64,000 bases of DNA from an uncultured Gammaproteobacteria bacterium. GTDB taxonomy: Bacteria > Pseudomonadota > Gammaproteobacteria > UBA9214. Where the stretch lies: the NCBI GenBank assembly GCA_963748215.1, contig CAVVHS010000007.1, positions 416,001-480,000 of the forward strand, given 5' to 3'. The notes beneath the pieces are model-generated. The model saw only the letters and a list, made by a program, of their open reading frames with translations. It was not told where the DNA came from and did not search any database. Position numbers and translations under genes: made by a program. Each line of letters starts with the position of its first letter. The stretch's first letter is position 1. Below, one piece after another: positions 11,191 through 58,437 of the stretch.

Positions 11191-11201
11191 TCGGCGGAAA
11201 A

Positions 11202-13439: not shown

Positions 13440-13443
13440 CGCG

Positions 13444-22891: not shown

Positions 22892-23359
22892 ATGTCGACT
22901 GATACAATCAAATCGAGAAAATCCGGTGCACTGGTGTTGATTCCCGCACTGGCCCTGATGCTGCTGGGTGCCGGCTGCTCGGATAAGGAAACCACGTCCT
23001 CCCAGCAAGTTACACCGGCGGAGGCACCCGCCCCGCAGACTGCGAAACCGGAAGCAATGCCGCCTGTCAAGGCACCCGAACCTGCCGCCGAGGCGCCGGC
23101 CGGGACCGGGATGGCCGCTGCGGGCGGGGAGAAGATCTATCAGTCAAGCTGCCATGCCTGCCACGCGGCCGGTGTTGCGGGTGCGCCGAAACTGGGTGAT
23201 AAAGCGGCCTGGGCACCGCGAATTGCGAAGGGAAATGATGCCCTGCTGTCTTCGGTCAAGAACGGTCTCAACGCCATGCCCCCGAAAGGTGCCTGCATGA
23301 GTTGCAGTGATGACGATCTGCGTTCAGCCGTAGACTACATGGTCGGGCAGGGCTCCTGA
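22892..23359 (+). CDS. cytochrome c5 family lipoprotein
   Basis: Lipobox GAGC, Pro/Ala linker, CHACH, MPPKGACMSC. Confidence 0.93.
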   Translation: MSTDTIKSRKSGALVLIPALALMLLGAGCSDKETTSSQQVTPAEAPAPQTAKPEAMPPVKAPEPAAEAPAGTGMAAAGGEKIYQSSCHACHAAGVAGAPKLGDKAAWAPRIAKGNDALLSSVKNGLNAMPPKGACMSCSDDDLRSAVDYMVGQGS

Positions 23360-23365
23360 CGGTCT

Positions 23366-23434
23366 AAAGGGGCCGGATACTTTTTCGTATAAGGATATAC
23401 CTCGGCCGAAAAATGTATCCGCCCCGTTTTTTTT
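23366..23434. repeat. inverted repeat between convergent genes (possible bidirectional terminator); third copy at 22788-22812
   Basis: AAAGGGGCCGGATACTTTTTCG / CCGAAAAATGTATCCGCCCCGTTTT. Confidence 0.55.
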
Positions 23435-23471
23435 CTTTGCCCTGCCGGGCGTGTCCTGCCGGCAGCCTACC

Positions 23472-24656: not shown

Positions 24657-24686
24657 CTGTCGACCGCTGTTTCCAGGGGGAGGATT

Positions 24687-25607
24687 TCAGCCGCCGGGTG
24701 CCGGTTGAGCCGCCGGTGCATCGGGTTCCGGCAGGCGCTCCATGTCCACCGACACCTGCGGCCGGTGTCCCGGGTCGCCGCCGAACAGTACGCCCTTGAG
24801 TGGCGTGACATCGGCATAGTCCCGTCCCCAGGCCGTGGTGATGTGCTGGTCCAGCGGCACCCGGTTGTTGGTGGGGTCGAAGTCATGCCAGCCGACATCG
24901 GGCAGGTATACCGAGAACCAGGCATGCGATTCGTCGGCCCCGCGCTGCTTGGCCTGGCCCGGTGGCGGCAGGGTTTCCAGGTAGCCGCTCACATAGCGCG
25001 CCGCCAGCCCGAGACTGCGCAGGCAGGCGATCGCCAGGTGGGCGAAGTCCTGGCATACGCCCCGCCGACTGGAGAGGACCTCGGTCAGGGGGGTGGAGAC
25101 GGTGGAAAATCCCGGGTCGTAGGTGAACTCGTGGTGGACGCGCGCCATCAGGTCGCGCACCGACTCCAGCAGCGGCCGGCCGGGCGGGAACGACGGCGCC
25201 GCGTAATCGGCCAGTTCCTGCCCGGTGGGCACCAGCGATGAATCGAGCACGAACTGCCGGTTCTCGCGTGACATGTCCGTGGCGGGTTCCGCCAGGCGCC
25301 TGCGCGCCTCGTCCCAGGGGATGTCAGCTTCAAGTGCCAGCTGGCCGGTCCCGGGATTCAGCTCGATTTCGCTGGTGGCGATGACCGTGAGGGTCTGGTG
25401 CGGTTGCTGAATGGAAAAATAGCTGACATGGTTGCCGAAGTAATCCGCGTGTTCGGCAAGATCCATCGGCAGCGGGTCGATCTGCAGGCGATGTCCCAGG
25501 CACTGCTGGGTGACCAGATTGCGCGGCCGCAGGTGGGCCAGGTTGTGGCACAGGCTGACGGTCATCCCGTAACGGTACTCTGTCTTGTGCACGACACGGT
25601 ATTTCAT
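24687..25607 (-). CDS. transglutaminase family protein
   Basis: Bact_transglu_N-like start; GVCQDFAH, SHAW, DFDPTN triad. Confidence 0.95.
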   Translation of the reverse strand: MKYRVVHKTEYRYGMTVSLCHNLAHLRPRNLVTQQCLGHRLQIDPLPMDLAEHADYFGNHVSYFSIQQPHQTLTVIATSEIELNPGTGQLALEADIPWDEARRRLAEPATDMSRENRQFVLDSSLVPTGQELADYAAPSFPPGRPLLESVRDLMARVHHEFTYDPGFSTVSTPLTEVLSSRRGVCQDFAHLAIACLRSLGLAARYVSGYLETLPPPGQAKQRGADESHAWFSVYLPDVGWHDFDPTNNRVPLDQHITTAWGRDYADVTPLKGVLFGGDPGHRPQVSVDMERLPEPDAPAAQPAPGG

Positions 25608-31100: not shown

Positions 31101-31544
31101 GATAGCCACCAGGAAATTATTGATCTCCTGCTTCGAACGATCGGCACCGGACAGCCACTTCAGCAACCGCGGGCCGTCCTCGGTGATCTCCAGATAAGGC
31201 GCCAGTTCCTTGCGCAAGCCGGGCGTGTATTCGAAGGGGTAGTGCTCCGCATATTTTTCGACGAAAAAATCGAACGGGTTGATGACCACGATATCGGCCA
31301 CCAGGTCCACCTCGAAGGACAATGTCCGCACCGGTTCCGGGAACACCAGGCGGGCGAGGTAGTTGCCGAAGGGATCCTGCTGCCAGTTGATGAAATGTTT
31401 TTCGGGCAGCACCTTGAGCGAATAGGACTCGATCGGGCTGCGTGTATGCGGGGCCGGGCGCAGCCGTACGATATGCGGGGAGACCTCGACCGGCCGGTCA
31501 AAGCGGTACTCCGTCAAGTGATTGATAGCAACTCGAATAGCCAT
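28158..31544 (-). CDS. transglutaminase + DUF2126 fusion (two compensating frameshifts, near 29282 and 28905)
   Basis: [23 protein letters not shown]; [55 protein letters not shown]. Confidence 0.93.
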
Positions 31545-31608
31545 TTCAAGGAAACCTGGTCAGTAGTAAACAGGGGTCACCATAGCACGGATCGCGTCAA
31601 CGGCAGCT

Positions 31609-32457
31609 TCAGCTGTCCGTCCGGATGCTGAGATCAAAGTGCATTTCGGAATTCTCAACAGCGCCGTAACAGGACCCCTCTATCGGCAGGGTCCCGGCCG
31701 GGCTGCAGGCCGCGGCCAGCGCCACGTGCGCATCCGCCACGGCGGTACCGTGGCCGGGGTCGTAACCGCGCCAGCCACCACCGGGGATGTAGACCTCCGG
31801 CCAGGCGTGCAGGTAACGGCGTTTCCCGCGGGTTTCCGAACGGGCCTGGTAGCCGCTGACGAAACGCGCCGCGATGCCCTGTTCCCGGCAGAGTGCGATA
31901 AACAGCAGCGTCAGGTCGCGGCATGCGCCCCGGCGCTGTGCCAGTGTTAGTTCGGGGCTTTGCGGTGCACCCTGGTCCCGAATCGTCTTTTCGCATGTGG
32001 TGTGCAGGAAGCGGCTCAGGGTGTCGAGAAAAGCCAGCGTGTTGTTGCCCGCCTGTCTGGCCAGGTCGGCGGCCAGCTCGATGACCGCGGGTGCGGCTGT
32101 GCCGCAGGCACGACAGGCTGCCAGCGCCGGGACCTCGTGCTGGCTGTACCGAACGGGCAGAGCGGTTGCCGGAGTATTCACGATGTAGTCGAAGGGATTG
32201 TCCCGCAGCGTGACGACGCGAGCGGTGCTGTCAATACGCAGTTCGTTCGTCGTGCCGGTAAACCACAGGCGCGTGACCAGGTTGCCTTCGGCATCGATGA
32301 CGTTCGATTGCAGCACAGGTTTCGGGGTGATCGTACAGTCATGGTCGAGCACCCGCTGGCTGCCGTCGGTACGCGGCAGCAGGCGTACGATATGCGGGCC
32401 GAGCTGGACCGGACTGTGGTAACGGTACGTGGTGATATGCCGGATTTCAAATTGCAC
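31609..32457 (-). CDS. transglutaminase family protein
   Basis: GACRDL, LHAWPEVY, GYDP. Confidence 0.93.
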   Translation of the reverse strand: MQFEIRHITTYRYHSPVQLGPHIVRLLPRTDGSQRVLDHDCTITPKPVLQSNVIDAEGNLVTRLWFTGTTNELRIDSTARVVTLRDNPFDYIVNTPATALPVRYSQHEVPALAACRACGTAAPAVIELAADLARQAGNNTLAFLDTLSRFLHTTCEKTIRDQGAPQSPELTLAQRRGACRDLTLLFIALCREQGIAARFVSGYQARSETRGKRRYLHAWPEVYIPGGGWRGYDPGHGTAVADAHVALAAACSPAGTLPIEGSCYGAVENSEMHFDLSIRTDS

Positions 32458-32495
32458 GAGCGAAGGTCTTCATCTGCAGTCCCTGGTATCGGTAA

Positions 32496-32511
32496 GGCAA
32501 GAAGTACGCCA
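32496..32511 (-). promoter_or_regulatory. sigma54 -24/-12 promoter for the leftward transglutaminase operon
   Basis: TGGCGTACTTCTTGCC on the minus strand. Confidence 0.6.
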
Positions 32512-32679
32512 TTTCTGCTGTTCCTGTCCTTCCCGCGCCGCCGGACGGGATATCGGGAGATTGCAGGCCGGCTGTGGCTGTGTTTCATGCCCTGCTGCCG
32601 GTTGGTGCCGCTGACCGGGAACCTGCCAGGCAGGTTCAGGTGCAAGTCTGGTGCGTAAAACGGGGTTTTTTATGACCCG

Positions 32680-32696
32680 TGCGTTATGTTGGTGCA
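32680..32696. promoter_or_regulatory. NtrC-like enhancer box
   Basis: TGCGTTATGTTGGTGCA vs consensus TGCACCA-N3-TGGTGCA; lies between two divergent sigma54 motifs. Confidence 0.5.
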
Positions 32697-32893
32697 TGTC
32701 AGGCGCCGCAGGCATCCCTGCTGCAGGCGGCGGCCACCGTACGCCGCTTGACCCGAGGTCAGTGCCGGCAGCGGTGCGCGTCCGCCAAGATGCTGTATTT
32801 CAATGATGGCCGGTTCCGCCTGGCATGATTCCGTGCGCCATGGCGAAACGAATGGTGCGACAGCGGCTGCACCGGCCGGCCGGCTCGCCCGGG

Positions 32894-32909
32894 TGGCACG
32901 TTGTTTGCT
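32894..32909 (+). promoter_or_regulatory. sigma54 -24/-12 promoter
   Basis: TGGCACGTTGTTTGCT, a full consensus match. Confidence 0.85.
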
Positions 32910-33030
32910 TTTATGTGAGGTATACGGTGGCAGCGATACCGACGACCTGATCATCCGGTAGCCATGACCAGCGGTTCGCTATACACCATTCCGTGACACG
33001 GCAGGCGCGATCAGGCGGGACATCGGTGAT

Positions 33031-34482
33031 ATGACAATTCGGTGGCAAGACTATTCAAGCGGCGACTCCTACGACGAACTGATTACGCCGGCCGGGCATG
33101 CGCGCAAGGCGGCCCGGCAAGCGATACGGTATATCAGTGCGCTGAGCGATGCGGAATGGACCGAGCGCCGGGATGCCGCGGAACTGGCCATGCGCGTCAT
33201 GGGTATTACCTTCACCGTCTATACCAACGAAAGCGGTATCGACCGGGTCTGGCCGTTCGATATCATTCCACGCATCATTCCCGCCCGCGAGTGGCGTACC
33301 ACCGAGGCCGGCCTGATCCAGCGTGCGACCGCATTGAACAAATTCATCGCCGATATTTACGGCGAACAGCGCATCATCAGGGACAGGATCTTTCCGGGTG
33401 AACTGCTCGCGGAGTCGGTCAATTTTCGCAAGCAGTGCGTCGGTATCAGGCCGCCACTCGATGTCTGGGCACATATCTGTGGCAGTGACCTGGTACGCGA
33501 CAGCGACGGAAAATTCTACGTCCTGGAAGACAACCTGCGTGTCCCGTCGGGTGTTTCCTATATGCTGGAGAATCGCCTGGTCATGAAGCGTGTCTTTCCC
33601 GAGTTGTTCGAGGAGGTCAGCATCCTGCCGGTAGACGGCTATCCTACCCGCCTGTTCGATACCCTGGCCTCGCTGTCGCCGCGCCCGGCCGACTACCCGA
33701 CGGTCGTTGTCCTGTCACCGGGCATCTATAACTCCGCCTATTTCGAGCATTCCTACCTGGCACAGCAAATGGGTGTGGAACTGGTGGTCGGCAGGGACCT
33801 GGTGGTGATGGATGACGACTGTGTCTACCTGCGCACCGTCGGCGGGCTGGAGCGGGTCGATGTCATTTACCGCCGGGTCGACGACATGTTCCTCGATCCC
33901 GAAGTCTTCCGTCCGGACTCCATGCTCGGCGTGCCCGGCCTGATGCGGGCCTGGCGTGCGGGCAATGTGGGCATTGCCAATGCCCCCGGTGCCGGCGTTG
34001 CCGATGACAAGGTTGTCTATGCCTTTGTGCCGGACATGATCCGCTACTACCTGGACGAAGAGCCGATCCTGCCCAATGTCGAGACCTACCTGTGCATGGA
34101 CGACAGGCAGCGCGACTACGTGCTTGCCAACCTCGACAAGCTGGTGGTCAAGCCCGCCAACGAATCGGGCGGCTACGGCATGCTGGTCGGACCGTTTTCC
34201 AGCAAGGCGGAACGGCAGAAGTTCGCGGAACTCATCAAGGCGAAACCCCGTAATTATATCGCCCAGCCGACACTGGCGCTGTCAACAACACCGACGCTGT
34301 GTGACGGTCACATCGAGTCGCGTCATATCGACCTGCGGCCGTTTATCCTGTCCGGGCAGACCAGCCATGTCACGCGAGGCGGCCTGACGCGGGTTGCACT
34401 CAAGAAGGGCTCGCTGGTGGTGAATTCATCACAGGGTGGTGGCAGCAAGGATACCTGGGTTGTGGACATGGAGAGAACCTGA
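33031..34482 (+). CDS. circularly permuted type 2 ATP-grasp protein, copy 2
   Basis: Same motifs as copy 1 (LEDNLRVPSGVSYMLENR, SSQGGGSKDTWV). Confidence 0.95.
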   Translation: MTIRWQDYSSGDSYDELITPAGHARKAARQAIRYISALSDAEWTERRDAAELAMRVMGITFTVYTNESGIDRVWPFDIIPRIIPAREWRTTEAGLIQRATALNKFIADIYGEQRIIRDRIFPGELLAESVNFRKQCVGIRPPLDVWAHICGSDLVRDSDGKFYVLEDNLRVPSGVSYMLENRLVMKRVFPELFEEVSILPVDGYPTRLFDTLASLSPRPADYPTVVVLSPGIYNSAYFEHSYLAQQMGVELVVGRDLVVMDDDCVYLRTVGGLERVDVIYRRVDDMFLDPEVFRPDSMLGVPGLMRAWRAGNVGIANAPGAGVADDKVVYAFVPDMIRYYLDEEPILPNVETYLCMDDRQRDYVLANLDKLVVKPANESGGYGMLVGPFSSKAERQKFAELIKAKPRNYIAQPTLALSTTPTLCDGHIESRHIDLRPFILSGQTSHVTRGGLTRVALKKGSLVVNSSQGGGSKDTWVVDMERT

Positions 34483-34484
34483 TC

Positions 34485-35465
34485 ATGTTGCTTTCAAGTG
34501 TTGCCGAGCATATCTACTGGATGTCCCGTTATATCGAACGGGCCGAGAACACCGCGCGCATCATCCTCGTGCACAACAACCTGATGCTCGATATGCCGCA
34601 CAGGATTGCCATCGGCTGGGACCCGCTGGTCTATATCATGGGCTCCATGGAACCGTTCCGTGAGCGCTACGAGGAAGCCAGTGAGCGCAACGTGGTGCGT
34701 TTCCTGGTCTCCGACAGGAACAATTCCAGCTGCATCACCCGCTCGCTGGGCCAGGCGCGCGAGAACCTGCGGACCATTCGGGCCATTGTGCCGCGTGCGG
34801 CCTGGGAGACCCTGAACGACCTGAATGAATACACCCGGGAAAATGCCGCCAGCGGCATCAACCGCCGCGGCCGTTACGCCTATATGAAACGGGTCGTTGA
34901 TTCCTGCCAGCTGCTGGCCGGCAAGCTGTCCGGCACCATGAGCCATGACATGGCCTACGAGTTCCTGCGCGTCGGCCGTTTCATGGAACGCGCCGACATG
35001 ACCAGTCGCGTTATCGATGTGCGGGCCACCAACCTGCTGCCGCAACAGACCGATGAACTCAAACCCTTTGACGATATCCAGTGGAAAAGCGTGCTGGACC
35101 TGCTGATGGCTTACCAGATGTACCGGCGTCGGGTGCATGTGGGCGTGCGGGGCAGGGAGGCATTGCGTTTCCTGCTGCAGGAGGAGGAGTTTCCGCGTTC
35201 GATACATTTCTGCCTGGCCGAGGTCGGCCACTGTCTGCGCCGTCTGCCCGGCAACGAGTCGGTGCTCCGCGTGCTCGGCCGCGCGCAGCGCATGGCGCAG
35301 GATTTCAGGGTCGGTGACAACGTTACCGCCGGTTTGAATGATTTCATCAACGAACTACAATTGGTACATACCGAGTTGCATGAACAGCTCGTCGCAAGCT
35401 ACTTCGATGTGCCGCAGGAAGCCGCATCACTGCATGCGTCCACCAATCTCGCTGCAACCGGTTGA
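34485..35465 (+). CDS. alpha-E domain protein, copy 2
   Basis: YWMSRYIERAENTAR, GRFMERADM, FPRSI. Confidence 0.94.
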   Translation: MLLSSVAEHIYWMSRYIERAENTARIILVHNNLMLDMPHRIAIGWDPLVYIMGSMEPFRERYEEASERNVVRFLVSDRNNSSCITRSLGQARENLRTIRAIVPRAAWETLNDLNEYTRENAASGINRRGRYAYMKRVVDSCQLLAGKLSGTMSHDMAYEFLRVGRFMERADMTSRVIDVRATNLLPQQTDELKPFDDIQWKSVLDLLMAYQMYRRRVHVGVRGREALRFLLQEEEFPRSIHFCLAEVGHCLRRLPGNESVLRVLGRAQRMAQDFRVGDNVTAGLNDFINELQLVHTELHEQLVASYFDVPQEAASLHASTNLAATG

Positions 35466-46587: not shown

Positions 46588-46603
46588 AGCAACATATGTG
46601 CCA
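46588..46603 (-). promoter_or_regulatory. sigma54 -24/-12 promoter of pckA
   Basis: TGGCACATATGTTGCT on the minus strand; TGCACCA half-sites at 46666 and 46707-46713. Confidence 0.75.
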
Positions 46604-47438: not shown

Positions 47439-48920
47439 TCAGGGACACCGCTCGATCGAGCTCTTGACCAGGGTGTCGATGCACTGGCCCTCGGCGTCGA
47501 TCAGCTCCACGTTGAACGGCATCCTGCCCAGCGCGTGGGTGGCGCAGGACAGGCAGGGATCGAAGGCACGGATCGCCACCTCGATGTGGTTCAAAAGGCC
47601 CTCGGTCAACCGGCGGCCGTCGAGGTAGCGTTTCGCCACTTGACGGATCGCCTCGTTCATCGCCTGGTTGTTATGCGTCGTCGAGACGATCAGATTGGCG
47701 CGCACCGCCTGGTCGTTCTCGTCCACCCGGTAGTGGTGAATCAGGGTGCCGCGCGGCGCCTCGATGACACCCACCCCGCGTTCACGGCGTTCGCCGGTGA
47801 CCACCAGGTCATCGCCCGAGATATCCTCGTCGTGCAGCAGGTCCTTGATTGATTCTGCGGCGAACAGCAGCTCGATCATCCGCGTCCAGTGATAGGCCAG
47901 CGTGGCGTGCACCGGCTGGCCGCCGCCGAAATCGACGAACTCGCGACGTTCCGCTTCCGCAAACGGCGTCGGTATATGATCGCAGTTCTGCACCCGCGCC
48001 AGCGGCCCTACCTTGTACCAGCCGGCCTCGGCACCCAGTGACCGGATGTAGGGGAACTTCATGTAGGACCAGGGCCTGACCTCTTCCGTGATGTGGTCCC
48101 AGTAGCGGTCATAGTCGACGGTATCGAAAATGATCTTGCCGTTGCTGTCGCGTGCCCGCAGCACGCCATGATAGAGGTCCATCCCTCCGTCAGGTGCGAC
48201 CAGGCTCATCAGGTTGGAACGAAAGGCACCGAAGCTGTTGTAGAGGCCCGCATTGGCCAGGTGCAGGCGCTTCGCCAGCTGCACGGCGGCGCGGCACCAG
48301 CCGATGATCTGGTAGATATCCTTGAGCAGCTCGGCGCGTTCTTCACGAGTCACGGCCTTGTTGACGCCACCGGGAATCGCCCCGGTGCCGTGTATGCGCT
48401 TGCCGGCAGTGACGCGGATCACCTCCTGGCCGAAGCGGCGCAGCAGCACGCCTTGCCTGGCGATATCCGGATACTCGGCCGCAACACCGACGATGTTGCG
48501 TCGCGCGACGTCCGAATCGAATCCGAACAGCAGGTCAGGCGAGGACAGGTGAAAGAAGTGCAGCGCATGTGACTGCAGTATCTGTCCGTAATGCATGAGC
48601 CGCCGGATCTTGTCGGCGGTCGGGGTCAGGTGGTCGACACCGACCACCTGGTCCAGCGCCTTGGCCGCCGCCAGGTGATGGCTGACCGGGCAGATCCCGC
48701 ACAGGCGCTGCACCATGACCGGGATTTCCCAGTACGGCCGGCCCTGGATGAACTTCTCGAAACCGCGAAACTCGACGATATGCAGCCGGACCTGCTGTAC
48801 GTGATCATCGCCATCGAGCAGGATGGTTACCTTGCCATGCCCCTCCACGCGGGAGAGCGGCTCGATGACCACGCGCTTCAGTCTGGCGGGATTGGCGGCG
48901 GTTTCCAGTTCAAAGCTCAT
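47439..48920 (-). CDS. hoxH: NAD-reducing [NiFe] hydrogenase large subunit (group 3d)
   Basis: [21 protein letters not shown] plus C-terminal extension. Confidence 0.95.
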
Positions 48921-48942
48921 TGGGCAGGACTCCGGTGTGTAC

Positions 48943-49494
48943 TCAGTCGTAATGGATCAGGCCGTGGCCGAGATGCGGTGTGCGCCCTGCCAGCAGGTCG
49001 GTGAGGAATTTCCAGATCGCGTCCGCGGTCGGCGGGCAACCGGGCAGGAAATAGTCGATTTTCACCACCTCGTGCAGGGCGTGTACCTTGTCCAGCGGCA
49101 GCGGCAGCTCGGGGTCGTTGGGGATGCAGCCCTTCGCCAGGCTGACCTCGGTGACGTAGACCTCCTGCAGACAGTCGCCGAGGTCGAGGTGATTGCGCTG
49201 CGCCGGCAGTCCGCCGTTTACCGCGCAGGCGCCCACCGCGACCAGGATCTTGCACTGCTTGCGAAACTCGCGCAGCACGTGAACGTTGTCCGCGTTGCAG
49301 ATGCCGCCCTCGATGAGGCCGACATCGCAGGGGCCGCAGTGCTTGATGTCGGTGAACGGCGAGCGGTCGAACTCGATACGATCGAGCAGCTCGAACAGCC
49401 GCTCGTCGATGTCGAGAAATGACATGTGGCAGCCGAAACAGCCGGCGAGCGAAGTGGTCGCGACACGCAGTTTGGGCTGGGCGGGTTCGCTCAT
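48943..49494 (-). CDS. hoxY: NAD-reducing hydrogenase small subunit
   Basis: LAGCFGCHMS, GACA, PGCPP. Confidence 0.94.
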   Translation of the reverse strand: MSEPAQPKLRVATTSLAGCFGCHMSFLDIDERLFELLDRIEFDRSPFTDIKHCGPCDVGLIEGGICNADNVHVLREFRKQCKILVAVGACAVNGGLPAQRNHLDLGDCLQEVYVTEVSLAKGCIPNDPELPLPLDKVHALHEVVKIDYFLPGCPPTADAIWKFLTDLLAGRTPHLGHGLIHYD

Positions 49495-50243
49495 GTCGAA
49501 TCCTTGCGCCGGGTCGTCGGCTGGCGCGGTGCGTCCCCGAGGGCCTGGGCGCTGACCGGCTGCCGGTCGAAGCGCCGTTCGCCGATGGGCACCCTGAACC
49601 CGACGCGCTTGTGCAGGATCACCCCGACGGGGCATACCTCCATGGCCTTGTCGGTGACGGCGATATCGGTGTCGGCCAGCCGCCTGGATTCGGCATTGAC
49701 AATCAGATGCTTGGTAATGCCGCGGCCCGACAGGGCGAACACGCACTTGTGGTCGACCTCTCTCGAGGCGCGCACGCAGAGTTCGCACAGGATGCAGCGG
49801 TTGAATTCGAGCAGGATATCGGGATGCGAGGCATCGACCGGCCGGTTCGGAAACAGGTAGTCGAACTCGGTCGACATGATATCGAGATCGTAGGCCACCG
49901 CCTGCAGCAGGCAGTTGCCGCTTGCCTCGCAGGACGGACAGAAGTGGTTGCCCTCGATAAACAGCATCTGTACCACTGTCTGGTGTTCCTTTTTGAGTCG
50001 CTCGGTCTGGCTCGCCACTTCCATGCCGGCCTGTGCCCGCAGGGTGCAGGACGCCGTGGTCCGGCCGTTCACCTCCACCGTGCAGACCTTGCAGCTGCCA
50101 TGCGGCTTGAACTCGGGGTGATAACAGAGGTGCGGGATGTAATGGCCTGCGGCAAGCGCGGCCTGGATCACCGTCTGCCCGGGTTCGAACGGCACCTCTT
50201 CCCCGTCGAGCAGAAACGTCGCGGTATTCGCTTCGGCGTTCAT
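49491..50243 (-). CDS. hoxU: diaphorase Fe-S subunit
   Basis: IPHLC...CKVC, HFCPSC, CILCELC. Confidence 0.94.
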   Translation of the reverse strand: MNAEANTATFLLDGEEVPFEPGQTVIQAALAAGHYIPHLCYHPEFKPHGSCKVCTVEVNGRTTASCTLRAQAGMEVASQTERLKKEHQTVVQMLFIEGNHFCPSCEASGNCLLQAVAYDLDIMSTEFDYLFPNRPVDASHPDILLEFNRCILCELCVRASREVDHKCVFALSGRGITKHLIVNAESRRLADTDIAVTDKAMEVCPVGVILHKRVGFRVPIGERRFDRQPVSAQALGDAPRQPTTRRKDST

Positions 50244-52024
50244 TCATCGGCCCCCAGGTGTGCGCCGGCGTCAGTCCGGCCGGTCATCGCCCGGGCCCGT
50301 TCCAGCGCCCCGTCCAGGTCGAAGGCGGGCTCGAATTCGAGCGACTCCAGGTGGCGCTCGTAGGCCGGGCGAAAGCGCTTGATGGTATCGAGGAGCGGAT
50401 TGCAGGCCGTGTGACCGAGCCCGCAGTGACTCGCGGACTGCAACAGCCGGCTGAGCCGGAAGATCTGGTTGAGATCATACAGGGAGCCCTTGCCTCCCTG
50501 CAGCTTGTCCATCACGTTGCACAGCAGCGTGGTGCCGACCCGGCAGGGTGTGCAGAAGCCGCAACTCTCGTGCGCGAAGAAATGCGTGAAATTACGCGCC
50601 ACCTCGAACATGTCGCGCGATTCGTCAAACACCATGAAGGCGCCGGCGGTCGGCAGGTCCTCGAAGGCGATGTGCCGCTCGAACTCGGTTGCGTCGATGC
50701 AGGTTCCCGAGGGGCCGCTGACCTGAACCGCCTGGGTGCGTTCCGCCCCGCAGTCCTCCAGCACCTGGCGCACCGTCACGCCGAACGGATACTCGTAAAT
50801 GCCGGGGCGTGCGCAGTCACCGGATACCGACAGGATCTTGCTGCCCGTGGACTTGCCGGTACCGATGCTGCCATACCATTCGTTGCCGTGCAGCGCGATC
50901 AGTGCCGCCGCGCAGAAGGTCTCGACATTATTCACCGTGGTCGGCTGCTGGAGGTAGCCGTGGGTGACCGGGTAGGGCGGACGGTTGCGCGGAATGCCCC
51001 GCTTGCCTTCCAGCGATTCGATGAGCGCGGACTCTTCACCGCAGATATAGGCGCCGGCACCGAGGTGAATCTCGATATCGAAGCCGAAACCGGCCTGGCC
51101 GCAGATGTCAGTGCCCAGCAGGCCCTCGGCACGCCGGCGCGCCAGCACCTCCTGCAAGGGCGGGAGCAGATGCCGGTACTCCCCGCGCAGGTAGAGGAAG
51201 CCCTGGCGTGCGCCGATCACGTGAGCGCAAACGGTCATGCCCTCGAACATCAGGTCAGCGTAGCGCGTCAGCAGCACCCGGTCCTTGAAGGTCCCCGGCT
51301 CGCCCTCGTCCGCATTGCAGACGACGTAGTGACTGTCACCCGCCGCGTTCCGGCAGGACTGCCACTTGAGCCCGGTGGCGAAGCCCGCACCGCCCCGGCC
51401 ACGCAGGTTGGAACGTTGTATTGCCTCCAGCGTCGCCAGCGGTCCCCGGGTGATCGCGCTGCGGATGGCGGTGCCCGGTTCGAGCGAGGCGTCGAGCAGG
51501 ATGTCCTTGCGGTGTATGTTGTCCTCGATCCGGAACAGCCCGGCCGGCCAGTCCTCGACCGGCGTGCGCGAGCGTATCAGTTCGGCAATCTCGTCGACCC
51601 GTGCCGTGGTGAGTTGCGGGATGGCCCAGCCGTTCACCAGCATGGCAGGGCCCTGGTCGCACATGCCGGTGCATGACGTGGTATCGACGCTTACCAGGCC
51701 GTCCTCGGATGTCTTGCCGCGCTCCAGCCAGAGACTGTTGCACAGGTGTTCCAGCAACGCCAGGTTGCCCGCCATGCGGTCGGTGATGTTGTCGGAGAAC
51801 AGCACCCGGTAGCTGCCGGCAGGCTCGAGGTGCAGGAAGCTGTAGAAACCGGCCACGCCTTCGACACGGCCGCGTGGCAGCTTGAGCAATCGCGCCAGGC
51901 AGGTCAGTGTGGCCGGCGGCAGCCAGCCCTCGATCTCCTCGGCCTCCCGCAGGATCTGCAGCAGCGCGGTCTGCTCGCTGCCGTAGCGGTCAACGATAGT
52001 TTCCAGTTCGGTCTGTGCTTCCAT
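50240..52024 (-). CDS. hoxF: diaphorase flavoprotein subunit
   Basis: NuoE-like N-terminus; GRGGAGF, NADEGEPG, YICGEESAL, ESCGFCTPCRVG. Confidence 0.95.
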   Translation of the reverse strand: MEAQTELETIVDRYGSEQTALLQILREAEEIEGWLPPATLTCLARLLKLPRGRVEGVAGFYSFLHLEPAGSYRVLFSDNITDRMAGNLALLEHLCNSLWLERGKTSEDGLVSVDTTSCTGMCDQGPAMLVNGWAIPQLTTARVDEIAELIRSRTPVEDWPAGLFRIEDNIHRKDILLDASLEPGTAIRSAITRGPLATLEAIQRSNLRGRGGAGFATGLKWQSCRNAAGDSHYVVCNADEGEPGTFKDRVLLTRYADLMFEGMTVCAHVIGARQGFLYLRGEYRHLLPPLQEVLARRRAEGLLGTDICGQAGFGFDIEIHLGAGAYICGEESALIESLEGKRGIPRNRPPYPVTHGYLQQPTTVNNVETFCAAALIALHGNEWYGSIGTGKSTGSKILSVSGDCARPGIYEYPFGVTVRQVLEDCGAERTQAVQVSGPSGTCIDATEFERHIAFEDLPTAGAFMVFDESRDMFEVARNFTHFFAHESCGFCTPCRVGTTLLCNVMDKLQGGKGSLYDLNQIFRLSRLLQSASHCGLGHTACNPLLDTIKRFRPAYERHLESLEFEPAFDLDGALERARAMTGRTDAGAHLGADE

Positions 52025-52310
52025 CAGTCGTGTACCACCGGGTTATGGAGGGGCGCGGTATGGCGGGCTGGAGAAACACCATCCTCAGGCGGCCGCCTGT
52101 CAACTTCAGTATACGGCATCAGCTGCACGTCATGCGGGCCGCAGTGAACGGGATGTCGTAACGGCAGCTGGTGATGTGCCGGGCATTACCGGGCAAGTCG
52201 AAGGTTACCCTGCAGACAGGTTTTGCCTTGAGAAGCCGCTTTTTCATCTTGCGTGACCTCCTGCACATGTCGTGCGGGTCGCCGGGATGCGAGTGGCGGC
52301 AGGCAGGCGC

Positions 52311-54986
52311 CTACTCGCGACCCATGTCGCTCGAAACGCCGCCCGCTGCCGGCAGATAGCAATTGACAACATAATCCTTGACCATGCGGTCGGCATTGAA
52401 GCGCCAGCCCAGGGTGCGGATGGAGCGTTTCATGCGCGCGATCCAGGCATGCGGCAAGCCATCCGGGTCGCGCTGGTAGTAAAGCGGTATCACCTCATCC
52501 TGCAGTACACGGTACAGGGCCGCGGCATCGCGCTGGTCCTGCAGTGCCTGGTTGCTGTGGGTTTCACCGTTGCTGATGGTAAATCCGTTGCGGCCGTCGT
52601 AGGCCTCCGCCCACCAGCCGTCCAGCACCGAGAGGTTGAGTCCGCCGTTGAGCACGACCTTCTGCCCGCTGGTGCCCGAGGCTTCCAGTGGCCGTCGCGG
52701 GTTGTTCAGCCACACATCGACGCCCTGCACCAGGTGGCGCGCGGTGTTCATGTCGTAGTTTTCGACAAACACGATCTTGCCGGCAAAGCGCGGATCGCGG
52801 CTGAGCTGGTCGATGTCCTGCAGGATGCCCTTGCCGACGCTGTCCTGGGGATGCGCCTTGCCCGCGAACAGGACCTGTACCGGGGCCTGCGGATTGTTGA
52901 CCAGGCGATCCAGTGCCTCCAGGTCATCGAGCAGCAGGTGACTGCGCTTGTATTCGGCGAAGCGGCGCGCGAAGCCGATGGTGAGCGTGTCGAGGTTGAG
53001 CGAGCGGCGCAGCTCCTCCATCACCGCGGCTGTCGCCCCGCGGCGCTGCTCCTGGCCGGTGACGCGGTGCCGGACGAAATCGAGCAGGCGTGCCTTCAGG
53101 ATCTGGTGCGTTTCCCACAGTTCGCCGTCATCCAGCCGGTCGATGCCGGTCCATACCCCGGGCTCGGCGCTGTGCTGCGCCCAGTCCGGGCCGAAATGGC
53201 GTTCGTACAGGGTGCGCATCTGCGGTGCCAGCCAGGACAGGACATGCACGCCGTTGGTGATATGACCGATAGGCGGCGACCGGCCGGGCCACAGATCGCG
53301 CCACATGGAACGCGACACCCGGCCGTGCAGGGCGGACACGCCGTTGGTACGGCGTGACATCTTCAGCGCCAGCACGGTCATGCAGAAGGTTTCCCCGGGG
53401 TTGTGCGGATTCACCCGGCCCAGTCCCATGAACTCGTCATAGCTGATGCCGAGCGCATCGCGCAGCGGGCCCAGGTGTTCTTCCACCATATCGGTATGGA
53501 AGCGGTCGTGGCCGGCCGGTACCGGGGTATGGGTGGTGAAGACATTGCGGCGCGCCACACGCAGCATGGCGTCCCAGAAATGAATGCCCTCCAGTTGCAT
53601 GCGGGTACGCGCGATTTCCAGGGACGCAAAGGCGCTGTGGCCCTCGTTCATGTGCAGCACGCCCGGTGTGATGCCCAGGGCGTCCAGGGCGCGCACGCCA
53701 CCGACGCCCAGCAGGAGCTCGTGGCGGATGCGGGTGCGGGCATCACCACCGTAGAGGCGCGCGGTCAGGGCCCGGTCCTCCTCGTTGTTCCCGGGTACAT
53801 CCGAATCCAGCAGCAGCAGGGTGCAGCGGCCGACGGCGAGTTTCCAGACGCGTGCGGACAGCGTGCCGTTGCGGGTCTGGATATGGATCATCAGGGGCTG
53901 CCCGTCAGCGCCGGTGGCCGGCTCCATGGGCAGCTGCCAGGCATCGACGTCGAGGTAGTCCTCGTGCTGCCAGCCGTCCTGGTCCAGGTGCTGGCGGAAA
54001 TAACCCTGGCTGTAATAGAGCCCGACGCCGATCAACGGTACGCCGAGATCGGAGGCGCTCTTGACGTGGTCGCCGGCCAGGATGCCCAGGCCGCCGGAGT
54101 AGATGGGCACGGATTCATGCAGGCCGAACTCGGCGGAAAAATACGCCACCGGGCGGGCGCCGAGCACGCCGGCATGGGTGTCGCCCCAGGAATCCCGATT
54201 GCCGAGATATTCCTGCAGGCGCCGGCAGGTTTGATTGATGCCGCCGCTCAGCACGTGGCGGTCGATGTTTTCCTCCAGCTCGAGCAGCGGGATTTCGGCA
54301 ATCAGGGCCACGGGATTGTGGTCCAGCTCCTGCCAGCGCAGCGGGTTGAGGGCGTGGAACAGCCCTTCGGCCACCATGTCCCAGCACCACCACAGGTTGC
54401 GGGCCAGGCCGTAAAGACGCTCGTAGTCCGGCGCGATCAGTTGTTCGATCTTGCGTACCTCGCCGACGATGGGACCCAGCGGCGCGGTTGCGCTAACCAG
54501 CTGCTGGATTTCGTTCGGGGAGAAGGTGCGCGGCTCGGTGGTCTGTACCACCAGGACACCCTGCAGCAGCCCGCGGTCCAGCAGCGGCAGGCCGAGGAAG
54601 GAATGGTAGGGCTCCTCGCCGGTTTCCGGAAAGTACTTGAAGCGTGCATGCTGACTGGCGTCTTCCACCATGATGGGCCGGGATTCCTGGGCCACCAGGC
54701 CGGCCAGTCCTTCGTGCAGGCTCATGCGCACCTTGCGCACGCTTTCCTGGCGCAGGCCCAGGGTCGCGGCCAGCACCAGGTGGCTGCGGTCGGGTTCGAG
54801 CAGGTACACCGAGCAGACATTGGTATGGAAGTGCGCCTGGATCAGCTGGATCACGGAATTGAGCGTCACCGCCGGATCGCCGCGCTCGGCGACCATCGTG
54901 CGCAGCGCCTCCACGTTGAGGTGCTGTTCCACGACCGGCTGCAGCGATGGGGTCGAAGGCGCCGCTGCTGGATCGTTCAAATTCAT
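52311..54986 (-). CDS. glgP: GAF domain - alpha-glucan phosphorylase fusion
   Basis: N-terminal GAF (VCSVYLL...EGLAGLVA...FKYFPETGEE...FLGLP...GVLVVQ); YSGGLG, NEGH, ARRFAEYKR, EASGTSGQK. Confidence 0.95.
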   Translation of the reverse strand: MNLNDPAAAPSTPSLQPVVEQHLNVEALRTMVAERGDPAVTLNSVIQLIQAHFHTNVCSVYLLEPDRSHLVLAATLGLRQESVRKVRMSLHEGLAGLVAQESRPIMVEDASQHARFKYFPETGEEPYHSFLGLPLLDRGLLQGVLVVQTTEPRTFSPNEIQQLVSATAPLGPIVGEVRKIEQLIAPDYERLYGLARNLWWCWDMVAEGLFHALNPLRWQELDHNPVALIAEIPLLELEENIDRHVLSGGINQTCRRLQEYLGNRDSWGDTHAGVLGARPVAYFSAEFGLHESVPIYSGGLGILAGDHVKSASDLGVPLIGVGLYYSQGYFRQHLDQDGWQHEDYLDVDAWQLPMEPATGADGQPLMIHIQTRNGTLSARVWKLAVGRCTLLLLDSDVPGNNEEDRALTARLYGGDARTRIRHELLLGVGGVRALDALGITPGVLHMNEGHSAFASLEIARTRMQLEGIHFWDAMLRVARRNVFTTHTPVPAGHDRFHTDMVEEHLGPLRDALGISYDEFMGLGRVNPHNPGETFCMTVLALKMSRRTNGVSALHGRVSRSMWRDLWPGRSPPIGHITNGVHVLSWLAPQMRTLYERHFGPDWAQHSAEPGVWTGIDRLDDGELWETHQILKARLLDFVRHRVTGQEQRRGATAAVMEELRRSLNLDTLTIGFARRFAEYKRSHLLLDDLEALDRLVNNPQAPVQVLFAGKAHPQDSVGKGILQDIDQLSRDPRFAGKIVFVENYDMNTARHLVQGVDVWLNNPRRPLEASGTSGQKVVLNGGLNLSVLDGWWAEAYDGRNGFTISNGETHSNQALQDQRDAAALYRVLQDEVIPLYYQRDPDGLPHAWIARMKRSIRTLGWRFNADRMVKDYVVNCYLPAAGGVSSDMGRE

Positions 54987-55029
54987 GGTCGTTCTCGTGT
55001 GAGCCGGATCGTGTCGGGTCGGGCGCAGC

Positions 55030-56283
55030 CTAGGCGGATTTGCTGCGGCTGTTGCCGGACTGTGCCTGCAATTCGAGCAGTTCTTCCTCGACCCCGGCGG
55101 CATGCGTCAGCTGGGCCACGTTCTCCTTGGTGAAGAAGCCCTGGAAATCACCGAAGCGCTGTACGTACTCGATGATCAGCGAGGAATGTTCCGAGGCGCT
55201 GGAGAAGATCTGTTTCAGGCCCTGGTCCCTGGAGCCAATGACGTCGAGCAGGAAGTCACGACCCTGGGCGGCGATTCGGCTGACGACGTGTTCGATGTTT
55301 TCCACGCCATCAGTCTCGCCGTCACGCACGGCCAGGGCGATATGATGCAGCCGCGGACCGTAGTTGCGCACGAAGGTCTCGGTGGGCGAGGGCAGCTGTT
55401 CGAGATGGTTGACGAAGTAGGGCGTGTTGTTGGCGGTGAACACCTTGGCCGGACTGTGTATTTCGCTGCCGGGGTGCGCGTTCTTGGTGACATTGGTCGA
55501 GGAATTCTGGTCGTGGATGTCGTAGGAGCCCCAGTAGTAGTAGCTGGAAAGCGACAGCCATTCCAGGATGGCGACCTCCCGGTTCTGGCTGTAGATGCGC
55601 GTGGCCAGATGGTCGATGGGCAGGATCAGGTCGTCGATGTGCAGCGTCTTCTGCAGTTCCTTGGCAGCCAGGTAGACATCCTGCACCTCCGGATTGATGC
55701 TGCTGATACCCAACGCGTAGACCCGGATCTGCTCGGGCGTCCGCTCCATGTAGCCGACGATGTTGTGGGTGTAGGGCGACGGCTTGACGATAGCGAGGTT
55801 GCCGGGCAGTTCCAGCTTGCGGGCGTCGTCCTGGGAGAAGAAGCGGAATTCCCGCGCCTGCTGGGTTTCGACCACGCCGTGCAGGTCGCTGACCCGCAGG
55901 ATTTCACCCATGTAACGGCTGTTGGGTTTGCGCGCGCCGATGGGGTAGACCTCGTTGAGGCTGCGGAAGATGCCGCGCGTACGCCGGTCCTTGACCTCGC
56001 GTACCAGGAAGTCCGGCGAGTTCATGTCGATGCGCAGGACATGCGTCCAGTGGCTCTTGCTCTCCAGCGTCACCAGGTAGTGGTAAGGCGTCATCAGCGC
56101 CAGTTCGCCGATGTAGCGTATGGAATTGCCGGGATCGACGGTGATCATGATGGCCTCGATCTGGTCGATCATGTCGGTCAGGCCGCTGCGGTCGCGCTCT
56201 TCCAGCAGGCGCAACAGGTACTCCTCGAAGAACGGTGAATTCTGCTTGTCGCCGTGGCGGGCGAATGTGGTCGAGCTGGTCAT
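55030..56283 (-). CDS. divergent HPPD-like VOC-superfamily metalloprotein
   Basis: IDHLA, RLHHIALAV, LKQIFS, IIEYVQR, GFF parallel the HPPD C-terminal motifs. Confidence 0.7.
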   Translation of the reverse strand: MTSSTTFARHGDKQNSPFFEEYLLRLLEERDRSGLTDMIDQIEAIMITVDPGNSIRYIGELALMTPYHYLVTLESKSHWTHVLRIDMNSPDFLVREVKDRRTRGIFRSLNEVYPIGARKPNSRYMGEILRVSDLHGVVETQQAREFRFFSQDDARKLELPGNLAIVKPSPYTHNIVGYMERTPEQIRVYALGISSINPEVQDVYLAAKELQKTLHIDDLILPIDHLATRIYSQNREVAILEWLSLSSYYYWGSYDIHDQNSSTNVTKNAHPGSEIHSPAKVFTANNTPYFVNHLEQLPSPTETFVRNYGPRLHHIALAVRDGETDGVENIEHVVSRIAAQGRDFLLDVIGSRDQGLKQIFSSASEHSSLIIEYVQRFGDFQGFFTKENVAQLTHAAGVEEELLELQAQSGNSRSKSA

Positions 56284-56325
56284 GTCTGGCTATCCAATCC
56301 TGTCGATGTTTGCTGTCGATAGCTT

Positions 56326-56341
56326 TGCAATATTTACGCCA
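56326..56341 (-). promoter_or_regulatory. sigma54 -24/-12 promoter
   Basis: TGGCGTAAATATTGCA on the minus strand, 42 bp from the VOC start. Confidence 0.65.
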
Positions 56342-56706
56342 TATGCTCGCCACCGGGCTGCATTGCCCGTTTGCAGCCAGAATTGCGTCCCTGGCCACCC
56401 GCCGCGTCCCTTCAGGCGCGCCGGCACGAGGGTGTCATGCACACCTATGCAGCACGGCAGACTGTCGGTTGCACCAGAATTGACCGATGGGCGGGCGTCC
56501 GCCGGACGGCATCAACATTCCAGGCGGCGGGGAATGCTTGCGTTGTCCGGATAGCGGGGGGAATGCTGTTGCGCGACTTTACCCCGGTGTCGGCACAAGG
56601 CAGGTTGGCGGGCGATGCCCGGGCCAATCACCCGGTTCGCGGCGGGAGAGGCGGTGTTGCGCAATATTCCGCGCCCGCTGCCGGATGACGGGGAGAAATG
56701 TCCGGG

Positions 56707-56875
56707 CTAGGAGCCTGTCGGACTTGGGCGATCGTAGCGAGCCGGGTGGGAGAACGAGGTCATTTTTTCGATCGTTCGAGGAGAATAGCCGTAGCTATTT
56801 GACGAGGAGGATCGGAAAAATGGGCCGCTGTCCCGCCGGCGCAGGAGATCAGTCCTAAGTCCGACAGACTCCTAG
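56707..56875. mobile_element. 169-bp MITE with CTAG ends
   Basis: CTAGGAGCCTGTCGGACTT ... AAGTCCGACAGACTCCTAG (18/19 inverted). Confidence 0.8.
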
Positions 56876-57180
56876 ACCACGACCACGGAGTTATCCGAGG
56901 TACCGAAGGGATTCGGCACATACTTGTCGGCGTCCCAGTCGTTTTCCCAGGTGTCGGCATCGATCAGGTAGCGGAACTGGTATTCGTGGTTGGTCTCGAG
57001 TTCGAGCGTGACCTTGAATGTGCCGTCCTTGAGTTTCTTCAGCGGAATGGCGTAGAGATTCCACTCGTTGAATTCACCGACGATATGAACGTTGCTGGCA
57101 TCTTTCGCCGCCTCGGGCGGCAGCCGAAACGTCACCTTGCAGACCGGCTTGGATTTCAGATACTGCTTAGTAAGGCTCAT
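56872..57180 (-). CDS. isoamylase early-set / CBM48 glycogen-binding protein
   Basis: CKVTFRLP, IVGEFNEW, YQFRYLID...WENDW...NSV; AGGAGG RBS. Confidence 0.92.
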   Translation of the reverse strand: MSLTKQYLKSKPVCKVTFRLPPEAAKDASNVHIVGEFNEWNLYAIPLKKLKDGTFKVTLELETNHEYQFRYLIDADTWENDWDADKYVPNPFGTSDNSVVVV

Positions 57181-57357
57181 CGCCTCCTCCTGAACGCTGT
57201 TGTGATGGTCGCTGCGTGTACAACACAAGGCAAGGATACATCTAGTTGAGCGGACCGTGCAAAGCAAGCGTTTTTTTCCGGGACCGACAGAGATCTACTA
57301 GCAGAGATCTACTATCAGTCGATCGACATCAACCGGGCTGGCATGCGGCCATCGTCC

Positions 57358-58059
57358 TCACGGCGCCGGTGACGGCGGCATGACGCCAGCGGTCGATGCC
57401 CAGTCGTCATCCCAGAGCCGGAAGCCGCCGGCAAAGGCATTGGCGTTGTCGCCGCGGAACACGTGTTCCGGCAACTCGTCATCCTTGAATTTCCAGACAT
57501 TGCCGCCGCCCAGCACCACGTAGTCCGGATAAAGCGCATACCGGAACAGTGCAATGGCCTCCAGCACCTGTGCCTTCCAGCCGGCCAGTCCGGTGCGGTC
57601 GAGGCCCGCCTTGCCGAGCGCGTACTCGAAGGTCTGGCCATCACGAAACGGCAGGTGGGCCATTTCCATGGGCACGATGTGACCATCGTGAATGATGGCG
57701 GAGCCCAGCCCCGTGCCGAGTCCCAGGAACAGCATGTGGCCGCCCCGGTAACTGCCCAGGGCCTGCATGGCGGCGTCGTTGATGAGCCGGACAGGGCTGC
57801 CGAATGCGGCCGCGTAGTCGAAATCCACCCAGCCGCCACCCAGGTTGACCGGCTCGCGCAACGGACGGTTGGCGCGGATGGGGCCGGGAAAGCCGATGGA
57901 GGCGCGCTCGTAGTGCCAGTCGCCGGCGGTTTCGTCCAGCGCCTGCATCAGTTGCTGCGGTGTCATGTGCGACGGGGTGGGAAAACTGCGCGGTACGGTC
58001 TCGCCCGTCAATGCCAGCTTGACGCTGAGACCACCGATGTCCACCACGAGTATGTTCAT
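57358..58059 (-). CDS. ROK family sugar kinase (polyphosphate glucokinase-like)
   Basis: VDIGG, GFPG, INDAAMQALG, GLGTGLGSA, LGGGN. Confidence 0.9.
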   Translation of the reverse strand: MNILVVDIGGLSVKLALTGETVPRSFPTPSHMTPQQLMQALDETAGDWHYERASIGFPGPIRANRPLREPVNLGGGWVDFDYAAAFGSPVRLINDAAMQALGSYRGGHMLFLGLGTGLGSAIIHDGHIVPMEMAHLPFRDGQTFEYALGKAGLDRTGLAGWKAQVLEAIALFRYALYPDYVVLGGGNVWKFKDDELPEHVFRGDNANAFAGGFRLWDDDWASTAGVMPPSPAP

Positions 58060-58437
58060 GAGCTGTCCCTTTGGCAGGTGAGCGGATCGGAGTTGGCTGC
58101 AGGTTATCATGTCCGGCAACGCGGGCAATGACCGGCGTGCCGTAGTACACGGCGTATGCCGTGCGCAACTGGTTCTGCGCACGGGAATATTGATTTGTGT
58201 CAACAGCCTGCGTAGTTTTCTGTATTCAATTATACTGCGGGTATGAGGCGCCATGGGCCTGTTGACGGGCCGGGTCACACCGGCCGGGCGATAGTCGGCA
58301 GTGTTCATTTCCCATGCGCCGCACCATGCGTCCGTGTATCCTTGTGCGCCGCAGGTCAAGCGTGGCGTGGATGGCCCCCTGCACTGGTGCCGGCGCGGAT
58401 GTGCCGGAGGCGTCCCGTTTGCCAGGGATTCGACAAT

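Follow-up and report, generated by a model that had tools for sequence, protein, structure and literature searches.

A PtsP-type GAF domain fused to an α-glucan phosphorylase in an uncultured gammaproteobacterium

A 64,000-nucleotide stretch of DNA from an uncultured gammaproteobacterium of the lineage UBA9214 (assembly GCA_963748215.1, contig CAVVHS010000007.1, positions 416,001–480,000; hereafter the window) contains a gene for an 891-residue protein in which a GAF domain is followed by a DUF3417 region and an α-glucan phosphorylase. The fusion was picked out in an earlier inspection of the sequence alone (the sequence-only reading). The favored interpretation, to which a probability of about 0.6 is assigned, is that the protein is a working phosphorylase of the TIGR02094 or "clade 2" type tuned by a rigidly fused GAF domain of the PtsP lineage, with glutamine and/or 2-oxoglutarate as the likeliest ligands, and that the gene has probably been acquired horizontally and is served by a putative sigma-54-type promoter.

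The longest open frame at the locus, at positions 52311–55103 of the reverse strand, encodes 930 residues. This version would overlap the preceding gene (55030–56283) by 74 nucleotides, and the full-length homologues of the fused protein are 886–891 residues long. Therefore, the ATG at position 54986, which had also been chosen in the sequence-only reading, is the likely start, resulting in 891 residues. According to Pfam, the protein contains a GAF domain at residues 38–165 (E = 5.6e-14; profile envelope 20–185), DUF3417 at residues 189–292 (E = 4.2e-22), and a phosphorylase domain, of which the best matched stretch is residues 443–791 (E = 5e-31). The gene is not a PtsP, because Pfam finds no phosphoenolpyruvate (PEP)-utilizer domain in the 891-residue protein and a separate true PtsP is encoded elsewhere in the genome (contig C8, 805.7 bits). 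The AlphaFold2 model of the fused protein has a mean predicted local distance difference test (pLDDT) of 80.4 and a predicted template modelling (TM) score of 0.74, with values of pLDDT of 80–89 in the GAF domain; a Foldseek search with the whole model returned phosphorylases only.

The 891-codon frame is not interrupted. A 2412-nucleotide contig from a sequencing run of a different study spans positions 53943–56354 of the window with 67 differences and 2 gaps, and bridges the upstream gene for a 417-residue protein, the GAF domain, and the beginning of the catalytic body in one piece. The same fused frame is present in two genomes of the same genus (G408 and G402) and in one other metagenome-assembled genome (L039). 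Since this independent contig and the three genomes carry the same frame, the junction is not an assembly chimera. Among RNA data, one estuary metatranscriptome run contains short pieces only, mostly less than 90% alike, which do not show transcription of the gene; two closer pieces both map to the catalytic part, and the GAF domain has none.

The phosphorylase part matches the NCBIfam model TIGR02094 ("alpha-glucan family phosphorylase") with 825.3 bits against a cut-off of 191.7, and residues 280–878 cover profile positions 1–599 of 600. The closest solved structure is that of the glycogen phosphorylase (GP) of Segatella copri (9L6I; E = 3e-177, 39% identity), with TM scores of 0.73/0.77 to the AlphaFold2 model. 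Residue K776 aligns with Lys609 of the S. copri enzyme, which carries the pyridoxal 5′-phosphate (PLP) cofactor according to the accessible part of its description (PMC12912991). K776 also aligns with the lysine of the GNMK motif in the canonical GlgP of the same genome, and K776, K680, R681, and H450 are invariant in all 68 aligned fused proteins. The EYKR and NEGH motifs align with those of the canonical GlgP as well; we take EYKR to be the phosphate site and NEGH (or NDTH) to be the histidine motif. Judged by its residues, the phosphorylase part looks catalytically whole, and the full-length TIGR02094 match with K776 in place agrees with the complete, PLP-lysine-retaining phosphorylase of the sequence-only reading. 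The fused protein is 41% identical to an unfused TIGR02094 paralogue of the same genome, which has 867 residues and a C-terminal extension (contig C7, 392628–395228). The canonical GlgP is encoded 4 kb past the end of the window. A further TIGR02094-type phosphorylase copy outside the window, on contig C6 (135455–137574), is spread over three different frames and thus contains two frameshifts. This copy is a pseudogene or else has been misassembled.

The affinity of the GAF domain with PtsP is supported by profiles, solved structures, and phylogeny. Residues 39–179 match positions 19–159 of the PtsP model NF008283 with 107 bits, compared with 31 bits for the NifA model and 53 bits for the generic Pfam GAF model. 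The closest solved GAF domains are those of PtsP proteins (3ci6, E = 1.4e-27; 3trc, E = 1.9e-22); the matches to the cyclic guanosine monophosphate (cGMP)-binding GAF domains of phosphodiesterases and to the haem-binding GAF domain of DevS are far weaker (E = 4e-7 to 3e-5). The domain is 41% identical to the GAF domain of the genome's own PtsP (E = 5e-33). A profile built from fused GAF domains scores this PtsP GAF at 148 bits and 14 NifA GAFs at 3–29 bits. Fused and PtsP GAFs have the same conserved residue in 28 columns, and 19 of these columns lack conservation in the other GAFs of the sample; in only three columns do the two groups conserve different residues. The polar residues among the conserved columns include S59, Y61, T75, H113, E124, Q148, and R153. 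All of the N-terminal motifs listed in the sequence-only reading (VCSVYL, LAATLGL, EGLAGLVA, HARFKY, FLGLP, and GVLVVQ) are found in the translation and lie on columns conserved in PtsP and fused GAFs.

A careful maximum-likelihood tree was calculated from 76 GAF domains, after the rows of fused proteins and proteobacterial PtsP proteins had been thinned and 29 fragments with unknown architecture dropped. It contains a 51-row clade of PtsP, fused, histidine-kinase, and HD-GYP GAFs (support 99/97), with the 14 NifA GAFs outside it in a clade of their own (99/94). The 21 rows of fused GAFs are united with the GAFs of the HD-GYP protein and the kinase (100/98) in a clade that is nested with eight metagenomic PtsP GAFs (100/99), and the proteobacterial PtsP GAFs, including that of the same genome, are located elsewhere in the PtsP clade. 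The picture is unchanged from that of an earlier quick tree of 131 rows. Sequence comparison thus supports the assignment of the domain to the PtsP (EI-Ntr) type made in the sequence-only reading, with NifA as the outside group. A search of residues 20–190 against 1.84 billion representative proteins yielded 13,669 matches with E ≤ 0.001, of which 141 had E ≤ 1e-30. Twenty single-GAF matches scanned with Pfam comprise GAF-DUF3417(-phosphorylase) fragments, PtsP proteins, fragments with nothing recognizable after the GAF domain, one GAF-HAMP-HD-GYP protein, and one GAF-histidine kinase. The GAF domains of the HD-GYP protein and the histidine kinase are 55% and 49% identical to that in the window, respectively, and belong to the fused clade. 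This GAF subtype may therefore be a portable sensor that also heads these signaling proteins.

For nine fused proteins from several phyla, which are 58–82% identical to that of the window, the alignment over residues 20–300 has as many columns as residues (281) and thus no gaps. According to the model, three residues separate the last helix of the GAF domain (residues 170–182) from the first helix of the phosphorylase (residues 186–196). The GAF domain is thus predicted to be joined to the DUF3417 region by a helical connection without a flexible linker, and the modelled arrangement fits a rigid, allosteric coupling of the GAF domain and the phosphorylase.

The fusion is common in soil bacteria, widespread, and already recorded in databases with a generic name. 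The 120 best database homologues of residues 1–260 all contain GAF, DUF3417, and phosphorylase domains, and are named only "starch/glycogen/alpha-glucan phosphorylase". When one genome per species was considered, at least 576 of the 600 pattern matches listed encode a relative. The 80 genome loci returned all cover the GAF domain and DUF3417 together; most are from Acidobacteriota and about eight from Planctomycetota, and one each is labelled Bifidobacterium, Deltaproteobacteria, and Gammaproteobacteria. The implication of the sequence-only reading that the fusion was a singular find is therefore not upheld. None of 400 other Pseudomonadota genomes sampled has both parts in one frame; 206 of them have a PtsP-type GAF only, and all 29 loci that were fetched encode PtsP. 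Within the genus of the window, the fusion occurs in 2 of 24 other genomes, several of which are incomplete, with identities of 89% and 81%. The fused protein is 66% identical to those of planctomycetes. A FastTree calculated from 70 whole fused proteins unites the four sequences from Gammaproteobacteria in one clade (100), which adjoins sequences from Planctomycetaceae (98) and Pirellulales (88). Because of the patchy distribution, the higher identity to planctomycete fused proteins, and the grouping in the tree, the gammaproteobacterial copy has probably been acquired horizontally as a finished fusion. The tree is unrooted and quickly made, and therefore does not fix the donor lineage.

The two-gene unit formed by the gene for the 417-residue protein and the fused gene is preceded by a putative sigma-54-type promoter. 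The motif TGGCG(T/C)-N5-TTGC is present about 41–43 nucleotides upstream of the ATG of the 417-residue protein in all four gammaproteobacterial loci, where it is an island of identity within an otherwise diverged intergenic region; its GG and GC are spaced as in a sigma-54 promoter. A promoter function of this −24/−12 motif is suggested by the comparison of these loci. Together with the gene for the large subunit of glutamate synthase (GltB) 12 kb away, the motif upstream of the operon in the four related genomes fits the sigma-54 and nitrogen theme that the sequence-only reading had attributed to the region. A scan of positions 51900–57500 for sigma-70 promoters found no sites, and the terminator-like matches in the same interval are all inside genes. 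A second conserved island (56400–56480, reverse strand), with TGGTGCA and GTGCA elements, is located about 110–150 nucleotides upstream of the motif and has counterparts in three loci (L039, L124, and L125); it could be an activator binding site. An NtrC-type site was considered for these elements and rejected, as their spacing does not fit the NtrC consensus, and no activator is named. Perfect TGGCAC-N5-TTGC sites, of which 0.37 are expected by chance, occur elsewhere in the window at 46589–46603 (reverse strand), upstream of the gene for PEP carboxykinase and conserved in G408 and G402, and at 32894–32908 (forward strand), upstream of a gene pair encoding a circularly permuted ATP-grasp protein and an Alpha-E protein.

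In the proposed mechanism, the protein would act as a PLP-dependent α-glucan (glycogen or maltodextrin) phosphorylase of the TIGR02094 or "clade 2" type, the activity of which would be tuned by a small-molecule-binding GAF domain held rigidly on the N-terminal helical region. Since the GAF domain belongs to the PtsP sensor lineage and keeps its conserved residues, the likeliest ligands are those reported for PtsP; by this analogy, glutamine and 2-oxoglutarate are the presumed signals. The accessible part of a 2026 review states that the GAF domain of E. coli PtsP is required for the binding of glutamine, which is inhibitory, and α-ketoglutarate, which is stimulatory (PMC13104625). The mobilization of glycogen might in this way be tied to the nitrogen/carbon balance of the cell without a phosphorelay; the direction of the regulation and the physiology of the fusion are likewise matters of deduction. 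The nitrogen-status switch put forward in the sequence-only reading would be a reasonable consequence of the kinship with PtsP. The gene would be expressed from a sigma-54-type promoter in a glycogen-catabolism cluster with genes for a glucokinase, a CBM48 protein, and glucose-6-phosphate isomerase, beside a hydrogenase linked to nicotinamide adenine dinucleotide (NAD), a setting that would fit the use of glycogen under energy-limited or anoxic conditions.

Several observations weigh against this interpretation. The accessible part of the same review describes the GAF-dependent model of PtsP as validated only in some bacteria (PMC13104625). The S. copri GP, which is the nearest characterized catalytic relative, is regulated by AMP and by its oligomer state according to the available part of its description (PMC12912991), and nucleotide control is therefore a live alternative. 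Another PtsP-type GAF domain is absent from all five fusion-bearing genomes of Acidobacteriota and Planctomycetota that were searched with this GAF as the query (E ≤ 1e-8); therefore, in its main hosts the sensor acts outside PTS-Ntr (PTS, phosphotransferase system) and could have a different ligand. The tree of GAF domains includes few outgroups (NifA, multi-GAF proteins, and three GAFs of the same genome), and the "conserved pocket" of the domain is a putative one, suggested purely by conservation. Docking of the GAF domain (residues 20–185) against the body (residues 186–891) resulted in a median score of 0.60 (0.64, 0.46, and 0.60), with 0.00 as the best of three controls; in the calibration of the method, 58 out of 80 solved complexes attained the mark applied, as did 2 out of 110 mismatched pairs, with passes up to 0.60 counting as weak, and the predicted packing of the GAF domain on the body is thus weakly supported. 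The −24/−12 motif differs in two positions from TGGCAC-N5-TTGC, and matches with two mismatches are no rarer in the window than expected by chance (100 found, 93 expected), so that the argument for a promoter draws on position and conservation. None of the 11 genes for sigma-54 activators (enhancer-binding proteins) of the genome is located in the window.

The ligands of the GAF class are diverse, and it is conceivable, although doubtful, that the domain is a true sensor of a nucleotide such as AMP, a cyclic nucleotide, an intermediate of glycolysis, or a redox signal, and reports the energy or carbon status of the cell instead of nitrogen. The AMP control described in the available text on the closest solved catalytic relative, the success of the fusion in five of five genomes without another PtsP-type GAF, and the local neighbors, which are carbon and energy genes and not nitrogen genes, are consistent with such a ligand. 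GAFs of the cGMP and haem types are also among the matches of the domain; however, these matches are far weaker than those to PtsP. The 28 columns shared with PtsP GAFs, 19 of them lineage-specific, the mere three that are conserved differently, and the nesting of the fused clade among PtsP GAFs argue for the ligands of PtsP. These same columns bear on the possibility that the domain no longer senses anything and acts in oligomerization or as a scaffold, determining the quaternary state of the phosphorylase. GAF domains often dimerize, and packing of the domain on the catalytic body is predicted, if weakly. Moreover, the oligomer state governs activity in GPs of clades 1 and 2, according to the accessible part of PMC12912991. 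However, it is precisely the columns conserved in PtsP, including the seven polar residues listed above, that show very high conservation across phyla, which would not be expected of a mere spacer, and the scaffold explanation is improbable. A wrong assembly or gene call, or a decaying pseudogene, might be suspected in a nine-contig assembly probably derived from a metagenome, the more so as another phosphorylase copy in it is broken into three frames. This suspicion is scarcely credible in view of the uninterrupted frame shared with G408, G402, and L039, the bridging of the junction by a contig of another study, and the coverage of both parts in 80 of 80 loci. A phosphorylase tuned by a ligand of the PtsP type thus remains the favored interpretation.

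The fused gene and its surroundings are summarized in Table 1. The order ROK gene, CBM48 gene, gene of the 417-residue protein, and fused gene is retained in G408 and G402, and the last two only in L039. The hydrogenase genes are found behind the fused gene in the window and G402 and are missing from that place in G408. The gene of the 417-residue protein is directly upstream of the fused gene in all four gammaproteobacterial loci and is not beside it in any of 79 non-gammaproteobacterial loci. The best 120 of 2846 matches to this protein are 80–99% identical to it, some of them named from Thiogranum and Sulfurirhabdus. It belongs to no Pfam family and has no match by sequence in the PDB (best E = 0.26); a protein atlas provides a remote lead to the VOC/glyoxalase proteins. 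Its AlphaFold2 model is unusable, with a mean pLDDT of 35, probably because its 35 aligned homologues are 79–91% identical. At the 79 loci from outside the Gammaproteobacteria, the fused gene stands beside none of its neighbors from the window, and each neighbor family is found in at most 9 of the 80 loci. Since no neighborhood is shared across phyla, the context provides no general clue to the function.

Table 1 Features of the fused gene and its surroundings in the window.
Feature	Position	Strand	Basis or remark
GAF-DUF3417-α-glucan phosphorylase, whole gene, 891 residues	52311..54986	−	Pfam and NCBIfam; same architecture in 120 best homologues
PtsP-type GAF sensor domain, residues 20–185	54432..54929	−	NF008283 (107 bits), PtsP GAFs in the PDB, tree
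Junction and DUF3417 helical N-terminal region of phosphorylase, residues 186–300	54087..54431	−	Pfam DUF3417, gapless alignment
Phosphorylase catalytic body, residues 301–891; codon of PLP lysine K776 at 52659–52661	52311..54086	−	TIGR02094
417-residue protein, no known family	55030..56283	−	Upstream gene of the same two-gene unit; ends 43 nucleotides before the phosphorylase start
Putative sigma-54-type −24/−12 motif TGGCGT-N5-TTGC	56327..56341	−	43 nucleotides upstream of the ATG of the 417-residue protein
CBM48 glycogen-binding-module protein	56872..57267	−	Pfam CBM_48, AMPK1_CBM; upstream; kept in G408 and G402
ROK-family (glucokinase-like) gene	57358..58359	−	Pfam ROK; upstream; kept in G408 and G402
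HoxF-, HoxU-, and [NiFe]-hydrogenase-like genes	47439..52024	−	Directly downstream; Pfam Complex1_51K, 2Fe-2S_thioredx, NADH-G_4Fe-4S_3, NiFeSe_Hases
PEP carboxykinase			Downstream, beyond the hydrogenase-like genes
Glucose-6-phosphate isomerase			Upstream, divergent
Class I fructose-bisphosphate aldolase			10 kb from the fused gene
Glutamate synthase large subunit (GltB)			12 kb from the fused gene

Positions 20467–35465 of the window contain a cluster of genes encoding circularly permuted ATP-grasp, Alpha-E, transglutaminase-like, and DUF2126 amidoligase proteins. Homologues of this cluster are located no more than 10 kb away from the fused gene in 8 of the 80 loci, from three phyla (L039, at 3066–16976, L043, L047, L065, L068, L072, L097, and L116). 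In L039, genes of the cluster are positioned on both sides of the gene of the 417-residue protein and the phosphorylase gene, and L043 and L097 each have the ATP-grasp gene in divergent orientation, about 200 base pairs from the phosphorylase start. Between the phosphorylase stop and hoxF, a 42-codon frame (52119–52247, reverse strand) follows an AGGAGG sequence. The start of its product (KAKPVCRVTFDLP) resembles by eye that of the upstream CBM48 protein (KSKPVCKVTFRLP), and the frame could be a remnant or else a small paralogue.

No study of a GAF-bearing glycogen phosphorylase was found in the full-text literature, a search that covered neither subscription journals nor supplements, in keeping with the remark of the sequence-only reading that the fusion was not known to be characterized. 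In the same literature, DUF3417 is treated in a paper on archaeal reserves only. The word GAF is absent from the 300,000 characters available of a 2024 Chemical Reviews article on prokaryotic α-glucan enzymes, and from the accessible part of a 2026 PNAS paper on gut GPs. The fusion is a real, widespread, and apparently uncharacterized variant of a known enzyme. The control of glycogen breakdown in bacteria is far less understood than that of its synthesis. If the favored interpretation is correct, the fusion would provide a direct post-translational link from metabolite status to the mobilization of a carbon store, and this link would operate in two phyla that are prominent among metagenome-assembled genomes from soil and sediment. 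With the sensor and enzyme in one soluble protein, it would also offer an independent read-out of the ligands of PtsP-type GAF domains; what the GAF domain of PtsP binds has been validated for PtsP in few species, according to the accessible part of PMC13104625. A more far-reaching, tentative scenario is that a portable glutamine/2-oxoglutarate sensor on a glycogen phosphorylase serves as a one-protein nitrogen/carbon switch on the main carbon store of Acidobacteriota and Planctomycetota, and was captured by a sulfur-cycle gammaproteobacterial lineage, in which it was placed with the 417-residue protein under sigma-54 control in a cluster for the catabolism of glycogen beside a hydrogenase; in its entirety this scenario is rather unlikely.

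The fused protein shares features with several known systems. Its GAF domain is of the same lineage as that of PtsP from E. coli and other Pseudomonadota (clade support 99/97; 3ci6 and 3trc), with which it has the 28 columns and the N-terminal position in common. However, the fused GAFs are set apart as a subclade (100/98), and the output of PtsP is a PEP-dependent phosphotransferase, whereas that of the fused protein is a glycogen phosphorylase; since PEP-utilizer domains are missing, it contains no phosphorelay. The GAF-HAMP-HD-GYP protein and the GAF-histidine kinase have the same GAF subtype, but their outputs are signaling domains and not a metabolic enzyme. The clade 2 GP of S. copri (9L6I) belongs to the same catalytic family and has the PLP lysine and the N-terminal helical region. 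According to the accessible part of its description, the S. copri enzyme has a C-terminal β-sheet domain, lacks a GAF domain, and is inhibited by AMP via the assembly of pentamers into decamers (PMC12912991). By contrast, the protein from the window ends after the catalytic body and carries its additional domain at the N-terminus. A PTS component is also linked to the activity of a glycogen phosphorylase in E. coli, where GlgP is regulated by the PTS protein HPr, as described in the part of the source available (PDB 9S8K; PMC11046441); there, the regulator is a distinct protein that binds to a clade 1 enzyme, whereas here the sensor of a PTS enzyme is in one polypeptide with an enzyme of the clade 2 type. 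A parallel in logic to what is proposed here is the α-amylase AMA2 of Chlamydomonas, in which an amino-acid-sensing domain is attached to an enzyme degrading a storage glucan: the accessible part of its description reports an N-terminal ACT domain and measured activation by glutamine (PMC11190351). AMA2 differs in having an ACT instead of a GAF domain, in being a hydrolase and not a phosphorylase, and in its eukaryotic host, and its glutamine response has been measured, whereas the fusion of a PtsP-type GAF domain with a phosphorylase is known here from its sequence.

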